Part shown: one piece after another, positions 1,840 through 62,757 of the stretch
Layout: the number at the start of each line of letters is the position of its first letter
Numbering within the stretch: position 1 is the stretch's first letter
Origin: Flavobacteriales bacterium
Lineage (GTDB): Bacteria > Bacteroidota > Bacteroidia > Flavobacteriales_D > Sanyastnellaceae
Assembly: GCA_044338665.1 (NCBI GenBank)
Contig: JBIIWZ010000010.1
Span: 4,447 to 68,446, forward strand
Length of the DNA: 64,000 nucleotides
Reading direction: 5' to 3'
Notes under the pieces: generated by a model
What the model saw: only the letters and a program-made list of their open reading frames with translations
What the model was told of the DNA's origin: nothing
Database searches by the model: none
Made by a program: the position numbers and the translations under genes

Positions 1840-2406
1840 TTATTTCTTAACGCGCTCGTGATAATGTCCGGTTGAAGTGTCAATGCGAATCTTGTCGCCC
1901 ACTTCAATAAACAATGGAACACGCACTTCAACATTCACATCGAGCATTGCTTTCTTCATAGCATTTGTTGCAGTGTCTCCGCGCAAACCTGGCTCGGTAT
2001 ACGTAATTTCATATTCAACCAATGTTGGAAGGTCGCACGTCATAGGCGCTTCGTCTTCCGCATTGAACATAACCATACACACCATTCCTTCTTTCAAGAA
2101 TTTCGGTGCGTTAATCATGGTTGCAGGAATAGTGATTTGCTCGAAATCTTCCGTGTTCATGAAGTTGTACTCATCGTCTTGAAACAAGAACTGATACTCG
2201 CGTGTTTCAATTCGAACCACATCCATCTTCACTCCAGAGTTAAACGTATGGTCAACGATTTTTCCGTTGTTCAAATTTTTGATTTTCGTTCTTACGAAAG
2301 CCGGACCTTTTCCTGGTTTAACGTGTAAGAATTCAATGATTTTCCAGATGTGTGAATCCATTCTGAAACACATTCCGTTGTGAATGTCTGCGGTAGTTGA
2401 TGCCAT
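1840..2406 (-). CDS. efp: elongation factor P
   Basis: 188 aa. The [18 protein letters not shown] loop is characteristic of EF-P. Confidence 0.97.
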
Positions 2407-2420
2407 GATTATTTTTTATA

Positions 2421-2572
2421 AAGGTGTGTTACAAGGTTCTGCGAAAGGTGTGTTACAAGGTGTGTTTCAAGGTTCTGCGAAAGGTGTGTTACAAGGTTCT
2501 GCGAAAGGTGCTTTGCAAGGACGCTTCGCGTAGCGACCTTCCGTAGGACCTTCCATGGGACCTAACGAAGTT
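2421..2572 (+). repeat. backbone AAGGT/ACCTT hairpin repeat (E2)
   Basis: 24-nt units aaggtgtgttacaaggttctgcga, followed by the core gcaaggacgcttcgcgtagcgaccttcc and then ACCTT-type arms. Confidence 0.8.
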
Positions 2573-2576
2573 AACG

Positions 2577-3557
2577 CTAGTAAGCCCACTTCACATAAAT
2601 AGCTCCCCACGTGAATCCACCGCCAAATGCGGCTAGTACGAGGTTGTCTCCTTTTTTCAATTGAGATTCCCAATCGCAAAGACAAAGTGGAATGGTTGCG
2701 CTAGTAGTGTTTCCGTATTTGTGAATGTTTATCATTACCTTCTCGCTGCCTACTCCCATGCGGCGTGCAGTAGCGTCGATAATTCTGAGGTTCGCTTGAT
2801 GAGGAACCAACCACGCCACATCGTCTGATGTAAGGTTGTTCTTCTCCATGATTTCAGCAGACACATCGGCCATTCCCATTACCGCAGCTTTGAAAACGGG
2901 TTGACCGTCTTGGGTAATGAAATGTTCGCGGTTGGCAACGGTTTCAGCGGTAGACGGATTAACCGAACCGCCTGACTTCTGATATAAATAGTGTCTTCCG
3001 TGTCCGTCTGTTTTCAGTATGCTATCCATGATTCCGTTGTCGTCTTCTGTTGGTTCAAGAAGCACAGCTCCCGCGCCATCTCCGAATAGCACACATGTAG
3101 CGCGATCGGTGTAGTCTACGATGCTCGACATTTTGTCTGCACCTACAACAACAACCTTTTTACACTTTCCTGTTTCAATGAATTGTGAACCGGTTGCTAC
3201 GGCAAAAAGAAAACCTGAACAAGCAGCACCGAGGTCATATCCCCAAGCGTTTTTCGCTCCAATTTTATCGCAAATAATATTTGCAGTAGCGGGAAATAAA
3301 TGGTCTGGAGTTACGGTTGCGCAAATGAGCAAATCAATGTCCATCGGTGAAATCCCACGCTTTTCGCAAAGCACCTTCACGGCTTCCACCGCCATGTCGC
3401 TAGTGCCTAATCCTTCGCCTTTCAGTATATGACGTTCTGAAATACCTGTTCGCGAGCGAATCCACTCGTCGTTGGTATCTACCATTTTCTCTAAATCGGC
3501 GTTTGTAAGAAGGTCGGGGGGAAGGTAACCGCCTATTGCGGTAATGGCTGCTCTCAT
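2577..3557 (-). CDS. fabH: beta-ketoacyl-ACP synthase III
   Basis: 326 aa. [15 protein letters not shown], active-site AACSGF, and a C-terminal GGGFTWGA motif. Confidence 0.95.
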
Positions 3558-28569: not shown

Positions 28570-28578
28570 CTTAATGGG

Positions 28579-28606
28579 TGGCGGAGAGAGAGGGATTCGA
28601 ACCTTC
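28579..28606 (-). pseudogene. 3-prime fragment of a tRNA-Ser-like gene (T-arm, acceptor 3-prime strand, discriminator G, CCA)
   Basis: The minus strand reads GAAGG TTCGAAT CCCTC TCTCTCC G CCA. I could not draw a complementary 5-prime acceptor strand (GGAGAGA), a D-arm or an anticodon stem in the next ~70 nt. Confidence 0.5.
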
Positions 28607-28661
28607 ACTAAAAACCCTTTGTTTTCAAGTGTTTCAGAAGACCCTTAATCCCTGACGCTCC
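28592..28661 (+). repeat. island-bounding direct repeat, copy 1 (att-like)
   Basis: gggattcgaaccttcactaaaaaccctttgttttcaagtgtttcagaagacccttaatccctgacgctcc. It matches 60975-61044 at 63/70 positions with no gaps (hand alignment). Confidence 0.8.
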
Positions 28662-28755
28662 GATTACGCTCGTCTTTTCATTTTCAATTAGAACGAAGGT
28701 AATAATTTTTTCGTCAACTTAAAAATGAGTCAAATGAATTTTCAACACTACATAA

Positions 28756-42765: not shown

Positions 42766-43022
42766 AGGCGAATGAGCAAGCGGACGAATGCACTTCGTGC
42801 GAAAGCTTTGCGAATGTCTTCGACGATTTTAACAAAGAAGTTCCCTAGGTATTTATACGGATTTTTTCTACCCTCCCTTCTCCTCTATTGCCTGTAAAAC
42901 CTGAAATACTTCAGAAAACCACCCCTAAAAAACTGCGCAGTTTTTTAGACCGGCGAAAATTGACCGAATCTAGGGTGAAATGAATTAGGGATTGAAGTAC
43001 TTTTAAAATACGCAATTAGTCT
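42766..43022 (+). repeat. leader module copy A (GAATG array, palindrome, 3-prime block)
   Basis: Roughly 95 percent identical by eye to copy B over about 240 bp (42783-43022 versus 54510-54752). Confidence 0.85.
42926..42947. promoter_or_regulatory. perfect 22-bp palindrome TAAAAAACTGCGCAGTTTTTTA (copy P4)
   Basis: Read directly from the sequence. Confidence 0.55.
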
Positions 43023-43081
43023 TCGCCATTGATTCCAAATGAGAATATATAGAGGAGATCATTTGCAAATACAATCAAGTT

Positions 43082-58256: not shown

Positions 58257-58868
58257 ATGAAAAAGACATTACTCGGATTACTTTTTACTCTACTCGTTTC
58301 ATCAGTATTATTTGCGCAAGACAGCGAAATACAAAACGGTGATCTCATTTTTCAGACTTCACTTTCAGAACAGAGTAAGGCCATTCAGCTGGCAACAAAA
58401 TCTGAATATTCACACTGCGGGATTATATTTAATGAAGGCAACGACTATTATGTTTTTGAAGCCATTCAACCCGTAAAGCGCACACCCCTCGACAAATGGA
58501 TCGCTCGAGGTAAAAATGGTGAATACGCTATCAAGCGACTTAAAAACGCAGCACAAGTTTTAACTCCAACGACAATAGCAAAAATGAAACAGGTTGGTGA
58601 CGAATTTCGCGGTAAAAATTACGACTTGACTTTCGATTGGAGTGACGATAAAATTTATTGCTCTGAACTAATTTGGAAGATCTATCAGCGTGCAACAGGA
58701 ATTGAAATAGGCAAACTTGAAAAATTGAGCGACTTCGATTTGACCAGCGATGCGGTGAAGAAAAAAATGAACGAACGTTATGGCAATAAAATTCCTCTAA
58801 ACGAAATAGTCATTTCTCCTGCTTCCATTTTTAACAGCGAATTGCTCGTTACGGTAAAATCGAATTGA
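58257..58868 (+). CDS. secreted YiiX/YaeF-like permuted papain-fold (NlpC/P60-related) hydrolase
   Basis: Signal peptide present. GDLIFQ...SEYSHCGIIF...VFEA...YCSELIW follows the pattern of the C92 YiiX family. Confidence 0.6.
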   Translation: MKKTLLGLLFTLLVSSVLFAQDSEIQNGDLIFQTSLSEQSKAIQLATKSEYSHCGIIFNEGNDYYVFEAIQPVKRTPLDKWIARGKNGEYAIKRLKNAAQVLTPTTIAKMKQVGDEFRGKNYDLTFDWSDDKIYCSELIWKIYQRATGIEIGKLEKLSDFDLTSDAVKKKMNERYGNKIPLNEIVISPASIFNSELLVTVKSN

Positions 58869-59274: not shown

Positions 59275-59351
59275 CTTGCCCCATTCTTTCCAATTTACCA
59301 GATACCACAAGCCGAGACAATGACTTTCGAATTGCCGTTGAAGCGCGCAAT
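59275..59351 (-). pseudogene. remnant of an abiEi antitoxin gene (about 27 codons)
   Basis: 71/77 nt identical (hand alignment) to 62595-62671 inside the intact abiEi. Encodes LRASTAIRKSLSRLVVSGKLERMGQEQLS-stop. Confidence 0.7.
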
Positions 59352-59354
59352 ACG

Positions 59355-60842
59355 TTAATTAAAGCGTGGTGAAATTTTCAAAATGCCATCTGAATCTTCC
59401 ATAAATGCTTTGCATGAAGTTAAATACTCTTGCATATTCTCCATGCTTTCATCATATACATTGGCACTGAACTGATGTGCTCTTTGGAGCATTTTAATGT
59501 AGGTGTCGCACTTTCCCTGCTTCGTGAATTTCTTCAATGCTCCCATATAGTCTTCACGGTAAACGGTTGGAATGATAATTTTCGATTGCTCGGCTTTTAC
59601 CAATTCGGCATTCATCATCACACGCGCTATACGACCGTTGCCATCCAAGAAAGGATGCACCTCACTCATCACAAACATTATATAGGCAGCTTTTGCGAAA
59701 GGATGATCCAAGGCTGAATAAAATCCAAAGCTCTGTTCCAATGTTCCCCTCACCAAATTAAAATCCACAAAGGCTGTACTTCCAGCAAAATTATTCTTGT
59801 CCTTAAAAAGACCTGGATTTTTATCTACCCTAGCACGGAGCAATATCGAATGTCGTAACGATATTATTTTCAAAAACTCCTCTGGCGATGAAGGTGTAAC
59901 CTCCATTTCCTTTTTATTTGATACAATCTGATATGTACCCAACACATCATGACTATCATCGTTTCTTGCAGGAATTGGCTTATTGGATTGAATGATTTGT
60001 TTTGCTTCTTCAATTTCAAAAACAGTTCCCTCAATGTAATTTGAAAAATAGCTTTCAAAAAAAGCGAAGTTCCGGAATGATGTAGGTGTTGTATTTTTCT
60101 CTTCCCTGAACGGGAATTCTGTTTGCTTTAATTCACGAAACAACGTTTCAAATAATTCTAGCCTTGCAGGATCATAAGGCTTTCCAAATGCCCTCGCTTT
60201 TGCCAAAGGAGAACTAAGAATTTTAGATGTTTTCGTTGTCAGCAATGCGCTAATCAAACGATTTAATCTTTCAAATTCTTCAGGCATCTCCAACTTATCG
60301 GCAAGGTCTCTAGCTCGATCTCTCAACTTGTTGATTTCAACCTCGCCATTCACTCGTATTATTTGCTCTAAACGCTCCTCTATTTCGGGTAAACTCAAAC
60401 ACTTTGATTCACTACCTAATTTCCTGGATGCTTGCAAATTTTCCAGAAAAGCACGTGCTTTCTGAGAAGCGTGCAATTCACCAGAAAATTTATTGTCCCC
60501 TTCTATCGGTGAAGGGCCATTGAGAAATTGGATAGTAATTCCAGGAAGTTTTACTTTTTTAGTGTAGCTCGTAGTTAAAAATATCTTCCCCGTTTTAGTT
60601 GGCTGAAATTCAAAAGCAGAGCGATGGCTAAGCATTGTTCCTGGGTAGAGCGTTCCTAAAATATGAAAGAGATTTCTTCGGATAATGCCTTCAATTGGTT
60701 CTTCTAAATTTGAAGAATACACCCTTGGTGCAATTTTTCTAATGACCCCAGCCGATAACAATTTTGTTATTTGTTTAGAAATCTTAGAATCCTGCGAACT
60801 GCAGATTACCTCTTGCAAGTGAATTGGGCGATTTTTTTCCAT
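59355..60842 (-). CDS. Fic family protein with an AbiEi-like N-terminal winged-helix module
   Basis: Fic motif HPFLDGNGRIARVMMN. N-terminal ISKQITKLLSAGVIRKIAPRVYSS ... KIFLTTSYTKKVKLPGITIQFLNG parallels AbiEi IRKSLSRIVVSGKLERMGQGIYVV ... KLVYLTSGHSKRIQIGKSAIVFKS. Confidence 0.8.
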   Translation of the reverse strand: MEKNRPIHLQEVICSSQDSKISKQITKLLSAGVIRKIAPRVYSSNLEEPIEGIIRRNLFHILGTLYPGTMLSHRSAFEFQPTKTGKIFLTTSYTKKVKLPGITIQFLNGPSPIEGDNKFSGELHASQKARAFLENLQASRKLGSESKCLSLPEIEERLEQIIRVNGEVEINKLRDRARDLADKLEMPEEFERLNRLISALLTTKTSKILSSPLAKARAFGKPYDPARLELFETLFRELKQTEFPFREEKNTTPTSFRNFAFFESYFSNYIEGTVFEIEEAKQIIQSNKPIPARNDDSHDVLGTYQIVSNKKEMEVTPSSPEEFLKIISLRHSILLRARVDKNPGLFKDKNNFAGSTAFVDFNLVRGTLEQSFGFYSALDHPFAKAAYIMFVMSEVHPFLDGNGRIARVMMNAELVKAEQSKIIIPTVYREDYMGALKKFTKQGKCDTYIKMLQRAHQFSANVYDESMENMQEYLTSCKAFMEDSDGILKISPRFN

Positions 60843-60974
60843 TATTCATCAGATCTGACACAAGATTAGCTAAATTTTTCCACTATAAAGCCATTTTGGG
60901 AAAATATTTTCCAGTAAGAAGATTGCGTTAATTAGTAGGTTTCTCAAAATATTAGCAACCCATAAAGGTGAATT

Positions 60975-61044
60975 GGGATTCGAATCTTTACTAAAAACCT
61001 TGTGTTTCCATGTGTTTCAGAAGACCCTTAATCCTTGACGCTCC
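60975..61044 (+). repeat. island-bounding direct repeat, copy 2 (att-like)
   Basis: gggattcgaatctttactaaaaaccttgtgtttccatgtgtttcagaagacccttaatccttgacgctcc. It matches copy 1 at 63/70 positions. It has no acceptor/CCA sequence to its left. Confidence 0.8.
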
Positions 61045-61130
61045 AAAGAAATACTCTGCTACGATTTCGCCAATCCCTGGTAATTAAAAAATCCCGTTTC
61101 GAGCGAATATGTGAGGACCGAAGATTGAGG

Positions 61131-62162
61131 TTATTCCTTTCCGTTGAACTTATCCTCGAGCAGTTTTGCAGCTAGCATAATCTCCTCGAATGTTGGTGCA
61201 TTACCATAGATCATCTCTGAACGCATAACTTCATAGTCATTCTTCAGTGCGTGAAGAATTTCATTATCCGGCACAATTGAAATGCTTCCGGGAATCAACG
61301 AGGTGTAATCGAAACGTTTCAATCTTGAATAAAACTTTCGATGCTCAATTACTTCGTTGATAAAAATTTCGTTGTTCATTGTGTCGGATGAAAAATCTTG
61401 TCTTCCCAAATGAAACAAATCGTAATAATGTCTAGACATACGTTCTGTTCGCATCTTATCTCGCTCATCGCGATTGTACTCTTCGTGTAGCAATAAAATC
61501 TTTTCCACCAGTGTTCTTTGCGGATGAATGGTAAGTACTTCAACGTCTTCTTCAACGTAGTTCGAATTCGGGAAATATGTGACCAAAAGAGATTTCATAC
61601 TTCGCATAACACTCGGTTCTCTCATCGAACGAACACTGAATTCTATTTTCACACTGTCTCGCAGATAGGGATTCGGATCGAATAACGAAATGAAATTCAC
61701 ATAAATACTCTGCGGATCGGTATCGGGCATATCCGCTCGCACCGGCTCCGCCTCTATCGAGTACAAATTTTCGGGAACTTGTGATTCAACAAATTTAGAT
61801 TTTAATGCCTCTAGCAGCTGATTTGAAGTAAACGCACATCCTGCTCTTCGCAATTGTTCAACATAGTTTTTAGTAGGTGTTTGCTTATACGTCATTCCAA
61901 CTGCTTCGGAGCTTAGCGATATATCAATATCTTCAGAAAAACGATCAATTAAATGCCAGCCTTTACTCAATGAAGTCCCCCCCTTAAAGGCGAAATAATT
62001 GGCATACTTCGTTTCGAACAATAGCTTTATTGAAAGTGTGACCCACCAATCTTTTTCAATTGCCTTTGCCGGTATTCCTGAAATTCGAGACGCTTCGTTT
62101 ATTGACGCCAATCGTGAAGCATCGCTTAAGTTCTTTAACCAACCAATCATTCTACCTGGCAT
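61131..62162 (-). CDS. AbiEii/AbiGii family nucleotidyltransferase toxin
   Basis: AIEKDWWVT and FKGGTSLSKGW..IDRFSEDIDI motifs. Overlaps abiEi by 11 nt. Confidence 0.85.
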   Translation of the reverse strand: MPGRMIGWLKNLSDASRLASINEASRISGIPAKAIEKDWWVTLSIKLLFETKYANYFAFKGGTSLSKGWHLIDRFSEDIDISLSSEAVGMTYKQTPTKNYVEQLRRAGCAFTSNQLLEALKSKFVESQVPENLYSIEAEPVRADMPDTDPQSIYVNFISLFDPNPYLRDSVKIEFSVRSMREPSVMRSMKSLLVTYFPNSNYVEEDVEVLTIHPQRTLVEKILLLHEEYNRDERDKMRTERMSRHYYDLFHLGRQDFSSDTMNNEIFINEVIEHRKFYSRLKRFDYTSLIPGSISIVPDNEILHALKNDYEVMRSEMIYGNAPTFEEIMLAAKLLEDKFNGKE

Positions 62163-62757
62163 TTAAGATTTTTACAATGAAGTCACTCACCTTCGTTTGA
62201 GTTAGTCGTAAATCATGCTTCAAATTTTCTGGACTCTCTTTCTTCAATAACTGAATTATTCTATCCCTCTGCCCGACCGACAACTTCTCTAAATCTAATT
62301 CCTCCAAAGCCAAAAACAACAAACTTGTTATGTCACCTTTCATGGAAAGCCTTTTGGCTGTTGTTGACTTAAAAACTATAGCGCTTTTTCCAATCTGAAT
62401 TCTCTTTGAATGACCACTAGTTAGATACACTAGCTTCATTGGAACTTGGGTAGATAGACCAACTTTGTTCAATGCATATTGCCCAGAAGGTTTTATTTTA
62501 ACGTGCTCCTTCCGCGATAGCACTTCCGCCAATTCTTCTAAAGAAGGCAACACTTTACCGAAAACCCTATCAACTTTAGGCACCACATATATCCCTTGCC
62601 CCATTCTTTCCAATTTACCGGATACCACAATTCTAGACAATGACTTTCGAATTGCCGTTGAAGCGCCCATTGCCTTAAAATCAGAAGGTAAAAAGACACT
62701 CCCAGGCTTTGCCTTCCTGATTTTCAATTCAATAATTTGATTAACCGACTCTTTCAT
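62152..62757 (-). CDS. type IV toxin-antitoxin system AbiEi family antitoxin
   Basis: N-terminal wHTH IRKSLSRIVVSGKLERMGQGIYVVP. Operon position is upstream of abiEii. Confidence 0.8.
   Translation of the reverse strand: MKESVNQIIELKIRKAKPGSVFLPSDFKAMGASTAIRKSLSRIVVSGKLERMGQGIYVVPKVDRVFGKVLPSLEELAEVLSRKEHVKIKPSGQYALNKVGLSTQVPMKLVYLTSGHSKRIQIGKSAIVFKSTTAKRLSMKGDITSLLFLALEELDLEKLSVGQRDRIIQLLKKESPENLKHDLRLTQTKVSDFIVKILNAR

Follow-up and report, generated by a model that had tools for sequence, protein, structure and literature searches.

A Fic enzyme fused to a predicted AbiEi-fold module, with phased repeats upstream of its gene, in a Flavobacteriales bacterium

The fusion protein and its two halves

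A stretch of 64,000 nucleotides (nt) from a Flavobacteriales bacterium (Sanyastnellaceae; assembly GCA_044338665.1, contig JBIIWZ010000010.1, positions 4,447 to 68,446), hereafter called the window, was used for the analysis. It carries on its minus strand a gene for a protein of 495 amino acids (aa) in which an AbiEi-like N-terminal part is fused to a Fic domain. The gene occupies 59355-60842, with its stop codon TAA at 59355-59357, which is where an earlier note made from the sequence had placed the open reading frame (ORF). Homologs that match it in length number more than 5,800. The full-length AlphaFold model has a mean predicted local distance difference test (pLDDT) score of 95.2 and a predicted template modelling (pTM) score of 0.80, and its confidence is lowest around residues 201-220 (pLDDT 82-88). 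Four parts were distinguished along the protein, all encoded on the minus strand. An abbreviated winged-helix DNA-binding part (residues 9-66; 60645-60818) was delimited by the secondary structure of the AlphaFold models, AbiEi hidden Markov models (HMMs) and hhalign. It is followed by a part resembling the AbiEi C-terminal domain (residues 67-205; 60228-60644), delimited by a Foldseek match to 6y8q_A, the published topology of that domain and conservation. A helical connector seen in the AlphaFold secondary structure (residues 206-250; 60093-60227) leads into a class II Fic domain of the FICD/SoFic type (residues 251-495; 59358-60092), identified by Pfam, PADLOC, profile comparison with the PDB and Foldseek.

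Analysis of the C-terminal half revealed the canonical Fic motif that the earlier note had recognized there, H396-PFLDGNGRIA-R407 (HPFLDGNGRIAR, residues 396-407; 59622-59657, sequence verified). The Pfam Fic model PF02661 matches the protein with an E-value of 2.7e-12 (47.8 bits against a cut-off of 24) and the PADLOC SoFic model PDLC03963 with an E-value of 1.7e-18 (residues 257-480, model positions 54-284 of 361); the NCBIfam model ProtAdlyltaseSoFic gives 24 bits against a cut-off of 550. Comparison of the family profile with the PDB revealed Caenorhabditis elegans Fic-1 (8.4e-20) and FICD (5.6e-17), and a Foldseek search with the full-length model returned FICD (5e-10) and also SoFic, BT_2513 and CccR (7XUX, E 4.9e-6). 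At the end of a predicted helix spanning residues 253-270, the sequence S267-N-Y-I-E271-G272 (60027-60044, coordinates verified) has the form [S/T]xxxE[G/N] of the class II inhibitory helix and aligns onto the inhibitory motif TVAIEG of FICD.

Conservation was assessed in a family alignment of 60 diverse full-length members with 27-66% identity. In the inhibitory motif, serine is present at position 267 in 57/60 members, glutamic acid at position 271 in 53/60 (aspartic acid in four others) and glycine at position 272 in 57/60. Across the catalytic motif, conservation ranges from 51 to 60 of the 60 members, with H396 in 53, GNGR in 55-57 and R407 in all 60. On these alignments, residues ~251-495 are assigned to a class II Fic domain with an intact motif for AMP transfer and an inhibitory helix of its own. 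The enzyme looks catalytically competent, and AMP transfer is predicted. Such a helix is the established intramolecular brake of class II Fic proteins, and with it in place the AbiEi-like part does not have to act as an antitoxin. Both the SNYIEG brake and the phased promoter repeats described below had been missed in the earlier note.

By sequence and by fold, the Fic half matches FICD/HYPE and C. elegans Fic-1 best, and the inhibitory motif is part of the alignment; in contrast to the window protein, they are eukaryotic enzymes of the endoplasmic reticulum with tetratricopeptide-repeat and transmembrane N-termini, no DNA-binding module and a different biology. SoFic, a class II Fic AMPylase (PDB 3EQX, 3ZCN), resembles the window protein in that it stands alone and occurs in defence contexts. 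Its toxicity is under the control of an appended domain (PMC12249575), and standalone SoFic is a phage defence gene (bioRxiv 10.1101/2022.05.11.491447; PMC12249575). The extra domain of SoFic is a C-terminal winged helix, which is absent from the window protein, whereas that of the window protein is N-terminal and AbiEi-shaped, so that the N-termini differ. Unlike SoFic, the family has no conserved small downstream AS1-like antitoxin gene at the loci examined. CccR of Yersinia pseudotuberculosis (7XUX) shares with the window protein a class II Fic domain, an N-terminal inhibitory helix and a fused DNA-binding domain, and it is a Fic toxin that represses its own promoter through its fused helix-turn-helix (HTH) domain (PMC9755527). 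However, the HTH domain of CccR is C-terminal and unrelated to AbiEi, it binds a 10-bp inverted repeat, and CccR is a secreted effector of a type VI secretion system, while nothing suggests secretion of the window protein. CapRel(SJ46) is similar in concept, with a toxin and an antitoxin or regulatory domain in one polypeptide that may form a one-gene abortive-infection system; its fold is that of a RelA/SpoT-type pyrophosphokinase, unrelated to Fic, and nothing points to phage sensing by the window protein.

For the N-terminal half, the earlier note had drawn a parallel between two segments, one in the winged helix and one in the following beta-rich region, and the AbiEi protein encoded nearby. 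The segments exist (ISKQITKLL...RVYSS, residues 21-44; KIFLTT...ITIQF, residues 86-106), and their counterparts are residues 36-59 and 108-129 of the neighbouring AbiEi. The parallel does not appear in a pairwise BLASTP comparison of the N-terminal 193 aa with the neighbouring AbiEi, which was non-significant (E 0.65) and left the quoted segments unaligned. It holds at the profile level, where hhalign of the family N-domain against the DUF6088/AbiEi family of the neighbour gave one contiguous alignment of 90 columns (residues 17-106 against 32-129; E 8.6e-5, probability 60%) that pairs exactly these two segments. In HMM scans of the window protein itself, Pfam gave zero AbiEi matches, the PADLOC AbiEi match covers residues 16-82 at an E-value of 0.0025, and NCBIfam TAA_AbiEi reached an E-value of 0.12 (12 bits against a cut-off of 150).

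Because these own-protein matches were marginal and the pairwise comparison was null, the analysis was moved to the family level and each of the 60 members was HMM-scanned separately. AbiEi models were the sole recurrent non-Fic matches, PDLC02269 being found in 20/60 members, PDLC02225 in 16/60 and PDLC02270 in 13/60, with a best E-value of ~1e-6; Pfam AbiEi_4 matched 3/60 members (best E 6.6e-5). The AbiEi models thus match the family recurrently at sub-threshold level, and the window protein itself lies below the curated thresholds.

As whole-protein Foldseek was dominated by the Fic half, the N-domain was folded and searched separately. Residues 1-205 alone gave an AlphaFold model with pLDDT 95.0 and pTM 0.88, and its sole PDB match at E<=1e-3 was 6y8q_A, the AbiEi antitoxin of Streptococcus agalactiae (E 6.5e-4, probability 1.00, template modelling (TM) scores 0.49/0.51, 208 columns against a chain of 195 residues). 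At the sequence and profile level, no AbiEi turned up when the N-domain was searched against PDB sequences; the weak matches to Hsp70 and Mediator were rejected as noise. In the model, the predicted recognition helix (residues 19-30, SKISKQITKLLS; nt 60753-60788, minus strand) is followed by a beta-hairpin wing at residues 35-43. The next part is predicted to run from a single helix (74-78) through a row of beta-strands (86-125) to a helical bundle (128-203), and this order after the winged helix agrees with the published topology of the AbiEi C-terminal domain, namely helix, beta row and helical bundle (PMC7319586). Two motifs are conserved here in the 60-member alignment, SHRSAFE (72-78) and R130-A-F-L-E-N, with R130 invariant and LEN near-invariant.

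According to the models, residues 1-205 adopt the two-domain fold of AbiEi antitoxins and repressors. The claim in the earlier note of a complete AbiEi-like module is therefore borne out structurally, by the 6Y8Q match, the C-terminal-domain topology and the AlphaFold model, with the caveat that the winged helix is abbreviated. The fold, a winged helix and then helix, beta row and bundle, is common to the window protein and the AbiEi/Rv2827c group (COG5340; PDB 6Y8Q, 1ZEL). Unlike in AbiEi, the module is covalently fused to a Fic enzyme, has no AbiEii/DUF1814 partner and has an abbreviated winged helix, and its sequence similarity is below the curated thresholds of the AbiEi family.

Repeats upstream of the fusion gene

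Analysis of the sequence upstream of the gene revealed three repeats on the minus strand. Repeat A (TACTGGAAAATATT, position -74; 60903-60916) is the farthest from the gene. Repeat B (TAGTGGAAAAATTT, position -43; 60872-60885) is spaced 31 nt from A and covers what is presumed to be the -33 region of the promoter, and repeat C (TAATGGAAAAAAAT; 60831-60844) lies 41 nt from B and overlaps the start codon (ATG GAA AAA). All three are direct repeats of a word of ~12 nt with a TGGAAAA core. The spacings of 31 and 41 nt equal three and four helical turns, so that all three repeats lie on one face of the DNA. Between B and C, a candidate Bacteroidota-type -7 box (TAATCTTG; 60861-60868, minus strand) was noted, for which the relative L039 has TAATTTTG. 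The region of repeat A also holds the palindrome GGAAAATATTTTCC (60899-60912), and the homology to relatives has its breakpoint at the 5' edge of repeat A. As an operator, the inverted repeat at 60893-60903/60940-60950 was rejected, since its distal arm is not part of the block that is conserved with relatives.

The motif [AT]A[AG]TGGAAA[ATC] was counted 18 times in the same-strand upstream sequence of 13 family loci (2,080 nt in total), where 0.17 occurrences would be expected from the remainder of these loci. De novo repeat detection locus by locus in the most divergent lineages was mostly non-significant, in part because of mis-set start codons, and a pooled spacing test was used instead. 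This test, more telling than the motif count, is motif-free and counts the recurrence of any 9-mer, with at most one mismatch, in 38 non-redundant upstream regions of the family. A 9-mer recurred at exactly 31 nt in 18/38 regions, at 32 nt in five, at 30 nt in three and at 41 nt in 13/38. In shuffled controls the mean was 0.78 per spacing and the maximum six, and the upstream regions of unrelated genes at the same loci had a repeat at 31 nt in 4/159 cases and at 41 nt in 4/159. Seven of nine plasmid copies from cultured organisms, all outside the discovery set, confirm the spacing geometry.

The word that is repeated differs between lineages. TAATGGAAAAT is found in the group of the window, in Chitinophagales, in Dyadobacter and in others, GAAWATTTAATTTTCGGG in L008 and TCTAYAAAATTT in Bacteroidales; GCGACA/ACGACA occurs in one Bacteroidota family and in a betaproteobacterial metagenome-assembled genome (MAG), AAAAGTC in two Alphaproteobacteria and CYTAGAGTT in Thermoleophilia. 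A Variovorax plasmid copy contains AAAACACGACA four times and encodes an RTAQRR helix. Comparison with the protein sequences revealed that the predicted helix SKQIxKL pairs with TGGAAAAT, and that the RAxQRR helix pairs with the GCGACA/ACGACA word across phyla, in Bacteroidota, the betaproteobacterial MAG and Variovorax. These comparisons indicate a repeat geometry that is conserved across the family and a lineage-specific word that tracks the predicted recognition helix.

The protein would, in our analysis, bind the repeats through its own winged helix and repress its own transcription. AbiEi and Rv2827c are known to autoregulate through promoter repeats, and the repeats of the window gene suggest likewise (PMC3985639, PMC7319586); unlike the paired inverted repeats of AbiEi and Rv2827c, those of the window gene are three direct repeats with 31- and 41-nt spacing. 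The description of the protein in the earlier note as a self-regulated single chain is reasonable for a covalent fusion with its own brake and repeats, the self-repression in it being presumptive.

Genomic context and the neighbouring AbiE pair

The earlier note had also reported a canonical AbiEi/AbiEii pair beside the gene, and Pfam and PADLOC confirm it at 61131-62757 on the minus strand. AbiEii lies at 61131-62162 (PF08843, E 2.8e-34; PADLOC AbiEii, 1.9e-88) and AbiEi/DUF6088 at 62152-62757 (E 4.1e-49). Genes for a 156-aa protein and an excisionase-like HTH_17 protein lie further upstream, as does the 3' end of an integrase gene. The pair is treated here as context only, on account of its presence and absence among relatives. 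A 98%-identical homolog (L042/L043) has the order AbiEi-AbiEii-Fic as in the window, a 95%-identical homolog (L045-L047) has a response-regulator gene directly adjoining the Fic gene with nothing between, and homologs at 84-89% identity occur in three unrelated contexts (a second Fic gene, HipA modules and housekeeping genes), none with the AbiE pair. In L042, blastn revealed that the AbiE block is bracketed by two 58-nt direct repeats (1266-1323 and ~3053-3110). The 58-nt sequence, which equals the 3' end of the response-regulator (GerE-type) gene, is present once in L045, and its distal copy is retained in the window as a cassette-end repeat (61060-61117, blastn against relatives). The bracketing repeats and the cassette-free 95%-identical relatives show the AbiE pair to be an independently inserted cassette. 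The kinship with the adjacent pair that the earlier note had implied is not supported by these relatives. The cassette is a clean presence/absence polymorphism among relatives; in L042 its AbiEii (2009-3039) was called as two ORFs of 64 and 279 aa, where L043 and the window have 339-343 aa, and is probably a frameshifted toxin gene.

No conserved partner gene was found for the fusion, and the idea of one was rejected. Of 45 diverse family loci screened with phmmer (AbiEi/AbiEii) and a DUF6088 HMM, L042 alone had such neighbours; no AbiEii was found beside nine further family loci; and all-against-all clustering of the 349 neighbouring ORFs from the 45 loci gave no family common to independent lineages. 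By Pfam and record annotation, neighbours of the family vary and include UvrD-like helicase, IS21 IstB, Wadjet JetD, ThsB-TIR, HEPN, HipA, VapC/AbrB, recombinases and ParA; toxin-antitoxin, defence and mobile genes abound among them.

The family itself is large. The N-terminal 200 aa recover 909 clusters at 50% identity, 525 of them at E<=1e-10, and nearly all complete members are 470-530 aa long and consist of the N-domain and Fic. Full-length members are present in about 40/401 sampled genomes of the phylum, and the family spans four phyla. Named-genome carriers belong to Chitinophagales, Bacteroidales, Dyadobacter, Dongiaceae, Holosporaceae, Caulobacteraceae, Thiobacillaceae, Opitutaceae and Thermoleophilia. 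A total of 21 plasmids carry the family, 19 of them in full length, and among these are plasmids of cultured Bacteroides, Phocaeicola, Hymenobacter, Novosphingobium (pNL1 of Novosphingobium aromaticivorans) and Variovorax. All members are labelled just 'Fic family protein' or 'hypothetical', Pfam detects only their Fic domain, and full-text literature searches found no description of the AbiEi-like/Fic architecture. The family is ancient and widespread, and the window gene is no local derivative of AbiE. The proposal in the earlier note of an AbiE system in which the nucleotidyltransferase was swapped for Fic is not supported, the fusion being an old multi-phylum family that occurs in unrelated contexts with no AbiEii or recurrent partner.

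Several variant copies were observed. An 84%-identical family member at L032-L035 is followed, 170 nt downstream, by a second and different Fic gene (L032 7652-8698; 348 aa), which is SoFic-like in combining Fic with a C-terminal winged helix (HTH_24) and lies beside a truncated integrase (Arm-DNA-bind_5). A 201-aa protein consisting of the N-domain only, followed by a convergent gene (P0154, JGI 3300075153 contig), may be a genuine standalone form; another candidate for such a form (P0136, 196 aa, L130) proved to be a split Fic gene. Hymenobacter sp. DG25B also has a split copy (L136 3001-3510 and 3459-4469).

DUF6088 genes without AbiEii were found near other members. In a Hymenobacter sublimis plasmid (L133), a solo DUF6088 gene at 1972-2818 is a precise insertion of 847 nt relative to the syntenic plasmid L136; it is flanked by the 8-bp direct repeat GGCCGGTT, and 183 nt separate its end from the Fic ATG downstream. 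The L042 AbiE cassette ends at a similar distance, 186 nt upstream of Fic, in an unrelated lineage. Another DUF6088 gene lies near the Bacteroides fragilis copy and is absent near the Phocaeicola vulgatus copy. In an unbiased phylum sample of 400 genomes, a DUF6088 gene occurs within 10 kb in 2 of ~35 other carriers, against ~0.2 expected, and the adjacent DUF6088 proteins of different lineages are 25-35% identical to each other. We read this proximity as co-residence in toxin-antitoxin and defence islets, and not as partnership.

A rival explanation takes the fusion for an AbiE-derived toxin-antitoxin system in which the AbiEi-like module neutralises a Fic toxin, possibly in cooperation with the adjacent pair. 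The AbiEi-like part is complete and includes the C-terminal domain that suffices for antitoxicity in AbiEi (PMC3985639), the invariant Arg130 and near-invariant LEN suggest a functional site beyond DNA binding, and DUF6088 genes are found near the family above chance (about 2 against 0.2 expected in the unbiased sample), the cases being those of the window, L042/43, H. sublimis, B. fragilis, G210 and G126. Nevertheless, the conserved class II inhibitory helix of the Fic domain is an established brake, ~33/35 carrier genomes have no DUF6088 within 10 kb, no AbiEii neighbour is found in the 45 and nine loci save in the nearest relatives of the window, and the pair is missing in 95%-identical relatives. 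The 25-35% identity between adjacent DUF6088 proteins points to independent acquisition, and extending the neutralisation by the AbiEi C-terminal domain from AbiEii to Fic is speculative. We consider this explanation improbable.

On its other side, the gene borders an insertion. In relatives, the 3' flank of Fic runs straight into sequence equal to window 28704 and below (92-94% identity), which identifies window 28705-59343 as an insertion of 30.6 kb. It starts 12 nt past the Fic stop and has a GC content of 0.30-0.40 against 0.42-0.47 for the backbone; 92-98%-related contigs lack it. The first sequence of the insertion, 12 nt after the stop, is the relic of a second abiEi gene (59275-59343, minus strand) encoding ASTAIRKSLSRLVVSGKLERMGQ, with ~90% DNA identity to 62595-62678 over 69-84 nt (tblastn 96% amino acid identity, E 1.5e-10). 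The relic indicates that recombination truncated another AbiE locus that was once present at this place. Lipoproteins and proteases are encoded in the block, which also has several families of internal repeats (for example 42783-43057 and 54510-54784, 88% identity). Its last gene, at 58257-58868 on the plus strand, encodes a signal-peptide-bearing permuted papain-like amidase of the YiiX/YaeF type (Peptidase_C92, E 8.3e-33) and precedes a non-coding stretch that ends at the abiEi relic.

Upstream of the gene, an att-like 70-nt repeat (D7b, 60975-61044) lies 133 nt from the Fic ATG, at the edge of the integrase/AbiE module; its partner D7a (28592-28661) is 90% identical, and the assembly contains these two copies only. 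Relatives have a single copy, ~110 nt downstream of Fic. The copy at 28577-28662 (minus strand) ends in GGTTCGAATCCCTCTCTCTCCGCCA, which resembles the 3' end of a tRNA. A tRNA-derived att site was rejected, as ARAGORN and Rfam gathering-threshold scans were empty and a permissive scan gave only a meaningless tRNA-Sec match (E 0.62), the fold z-score of the repeat being only -2.2, and D7 remains an att-like two-copy repeat. The placement of the gene in the earlier note at an island edge beside an att-like repeat is borne out by the insertion 12 nt past the stop and the two-copy repeat 133 nt upstream. The Fic gene is a conserved gene between two variable insertions.

Interpretation and significance

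Overall, our analysis suggests, with a probability of about 0.65, that the gene encodes a self-repressing, auto-inhibited Fic module in a single polypeptide, possibly a toxin, addiction or defence gene, and that the AbiE pair is an independent cassette. The AbiEi-like N-domain (1-205) would supply DNA binding at the promoter repeats of the gene. With the winged helix on repeats A-C, the protein would repress its own transcription, as do AbiEi, Rv2827c and CccR, and Glu271 should keep ATP from binding productively, as its counterparts in FICD, SoFic and CccR do. The further steps are less certain. Repression, the Glu271 brake or both might be relieved by phage infection, element loss or stress; the released Fic domain might then AMPylate an essential host protein, a target for which EF-Tu, GyrB/ParE and FtsZ are precedents, and arrest growth, and the module would be a one-gene addiction or abortive-infection device.

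Several points weigh against this interpretation. DNA binding, repression, AMPylation, toxicity and defence are all properties that we infer, and as the closest structural relatives, FICD and SoFic, are bifunctional AMPylases/deAMPylases, the protein need not be a toxin. A search of a phage genome collection found no homolog, and the literature searched gives no defence phenotype for the AbiEi-like/Fic architecture. For the N-terminal half, the AbiEi HMM matches of the window protein itself are weak (PADLOC E 0.0025; NCBIfam E 0.12), the TM score of 0.5 and E-value of 6.5e-4 for 6Y8Q are moderate, and the abbreviated winged helix has one helix (19-30) before the wing against three in AbiEi. 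For the repeats, the P value of the motif is inflated by its post hoc choice and by the relatedness of the loci, about half of the family loci are below the threshold for the 31-nt repeat, and start codons are unreliable in several. In the window, repeat A is without its conserved 5' flank owing to a rearrangement breakpoint, and the repeats are direct, whereas AbiEi, Rv2827c and CccR use inverted repeats.

The AbiEi-shaped module may also be more than a repressor, acting as the sensor and switch of a one-polypeptide abortive-infection or addiction system, an extension that we hold tentatively and regard as possible at perhaps one chance in several. Bound to three phased sites, the module would shut off transcription and lock the Fic domain; phage DNA or protein, element loss or titration of the sites would trigger its release from DNA, and the R130/LEN surface and the helical connector would unlock Glu271, so that Fic could AMPylate an essential target.

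Compared with the self-repressing, auto-inhibited module, a non-toxic enzyme is doubtful, about as much so as the AbiE-derived toxin-antitoxin system. It would be a DNA-bound bifunctional AMPylase/deAMPylase that reversibly modifies a cellular or element target, or itself, and serves neither addiction nor defence. FICD and Fic-1 are the best sequence and structure matches, and in these enzymes the inhibitory glutamic acid supports deAMPylation. A 2026 preprint describes SoFic as constitutively reversing AMPylation of EF-Tu (bioRxiv 10.64898/2026.07.09.737422). Certain family members lie among housekeeping genes, and the high conservation of the family fits purifying selection for a routine function. 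On the other hand, the spread is patchy (about 40/401 genomes) and plasmid- or island-borne, split or decayed copies occur, and the neighbourhoods are rich in toxin-antitoxin and defence genes, as is typical of selfish or defence modules and not of core regulators. It is very improbable that the repeats are not the operator of the gene itself, being instead promoter or leader elements or sites of another factor, with the N-domain serving protein-protein or substrate recognition: repeat C does lie over the first codons, where the signal may partly reflect conserved N-terminal coding (MEK...), and the repeats are AT-rich within an AT-rich promoter, but GC-rich Proteobacteria and Actinomycetota keep the 31/41-nt geometry with wholly other words, changes of word go along with changes of the recognition helix across phyla, and the array moves with the gene into unrelated contexts while unrelated genes are without it.

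For annotation, the locus illustrates that an AbiEi-like region adjoining or fused to another toxin does not imply an AbiE system. The family combines two known toxin or defence components, Fic and AbiE-type, in a very common architecture that comprises thousands of proteins. The conserved operator geometry with its lineage-specific words constitutes a testable code of protein-DNA recognition, and the array together with the fusion offers a ready model of an autoregulated single-gene toxin. If it is true that the AbiEi-like domain gates the enzyme, the family would make the mechanism of AbiEi antitoxicity accessible to study, and it might represent a new class of single-gene defence or plasmid addiction. 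If the module does act as a switch, the family could reveal the role of the long-enigmatic C-terminal domain of AbiEi and might explain why free AbiEi-type genes repeatedly land beside it.

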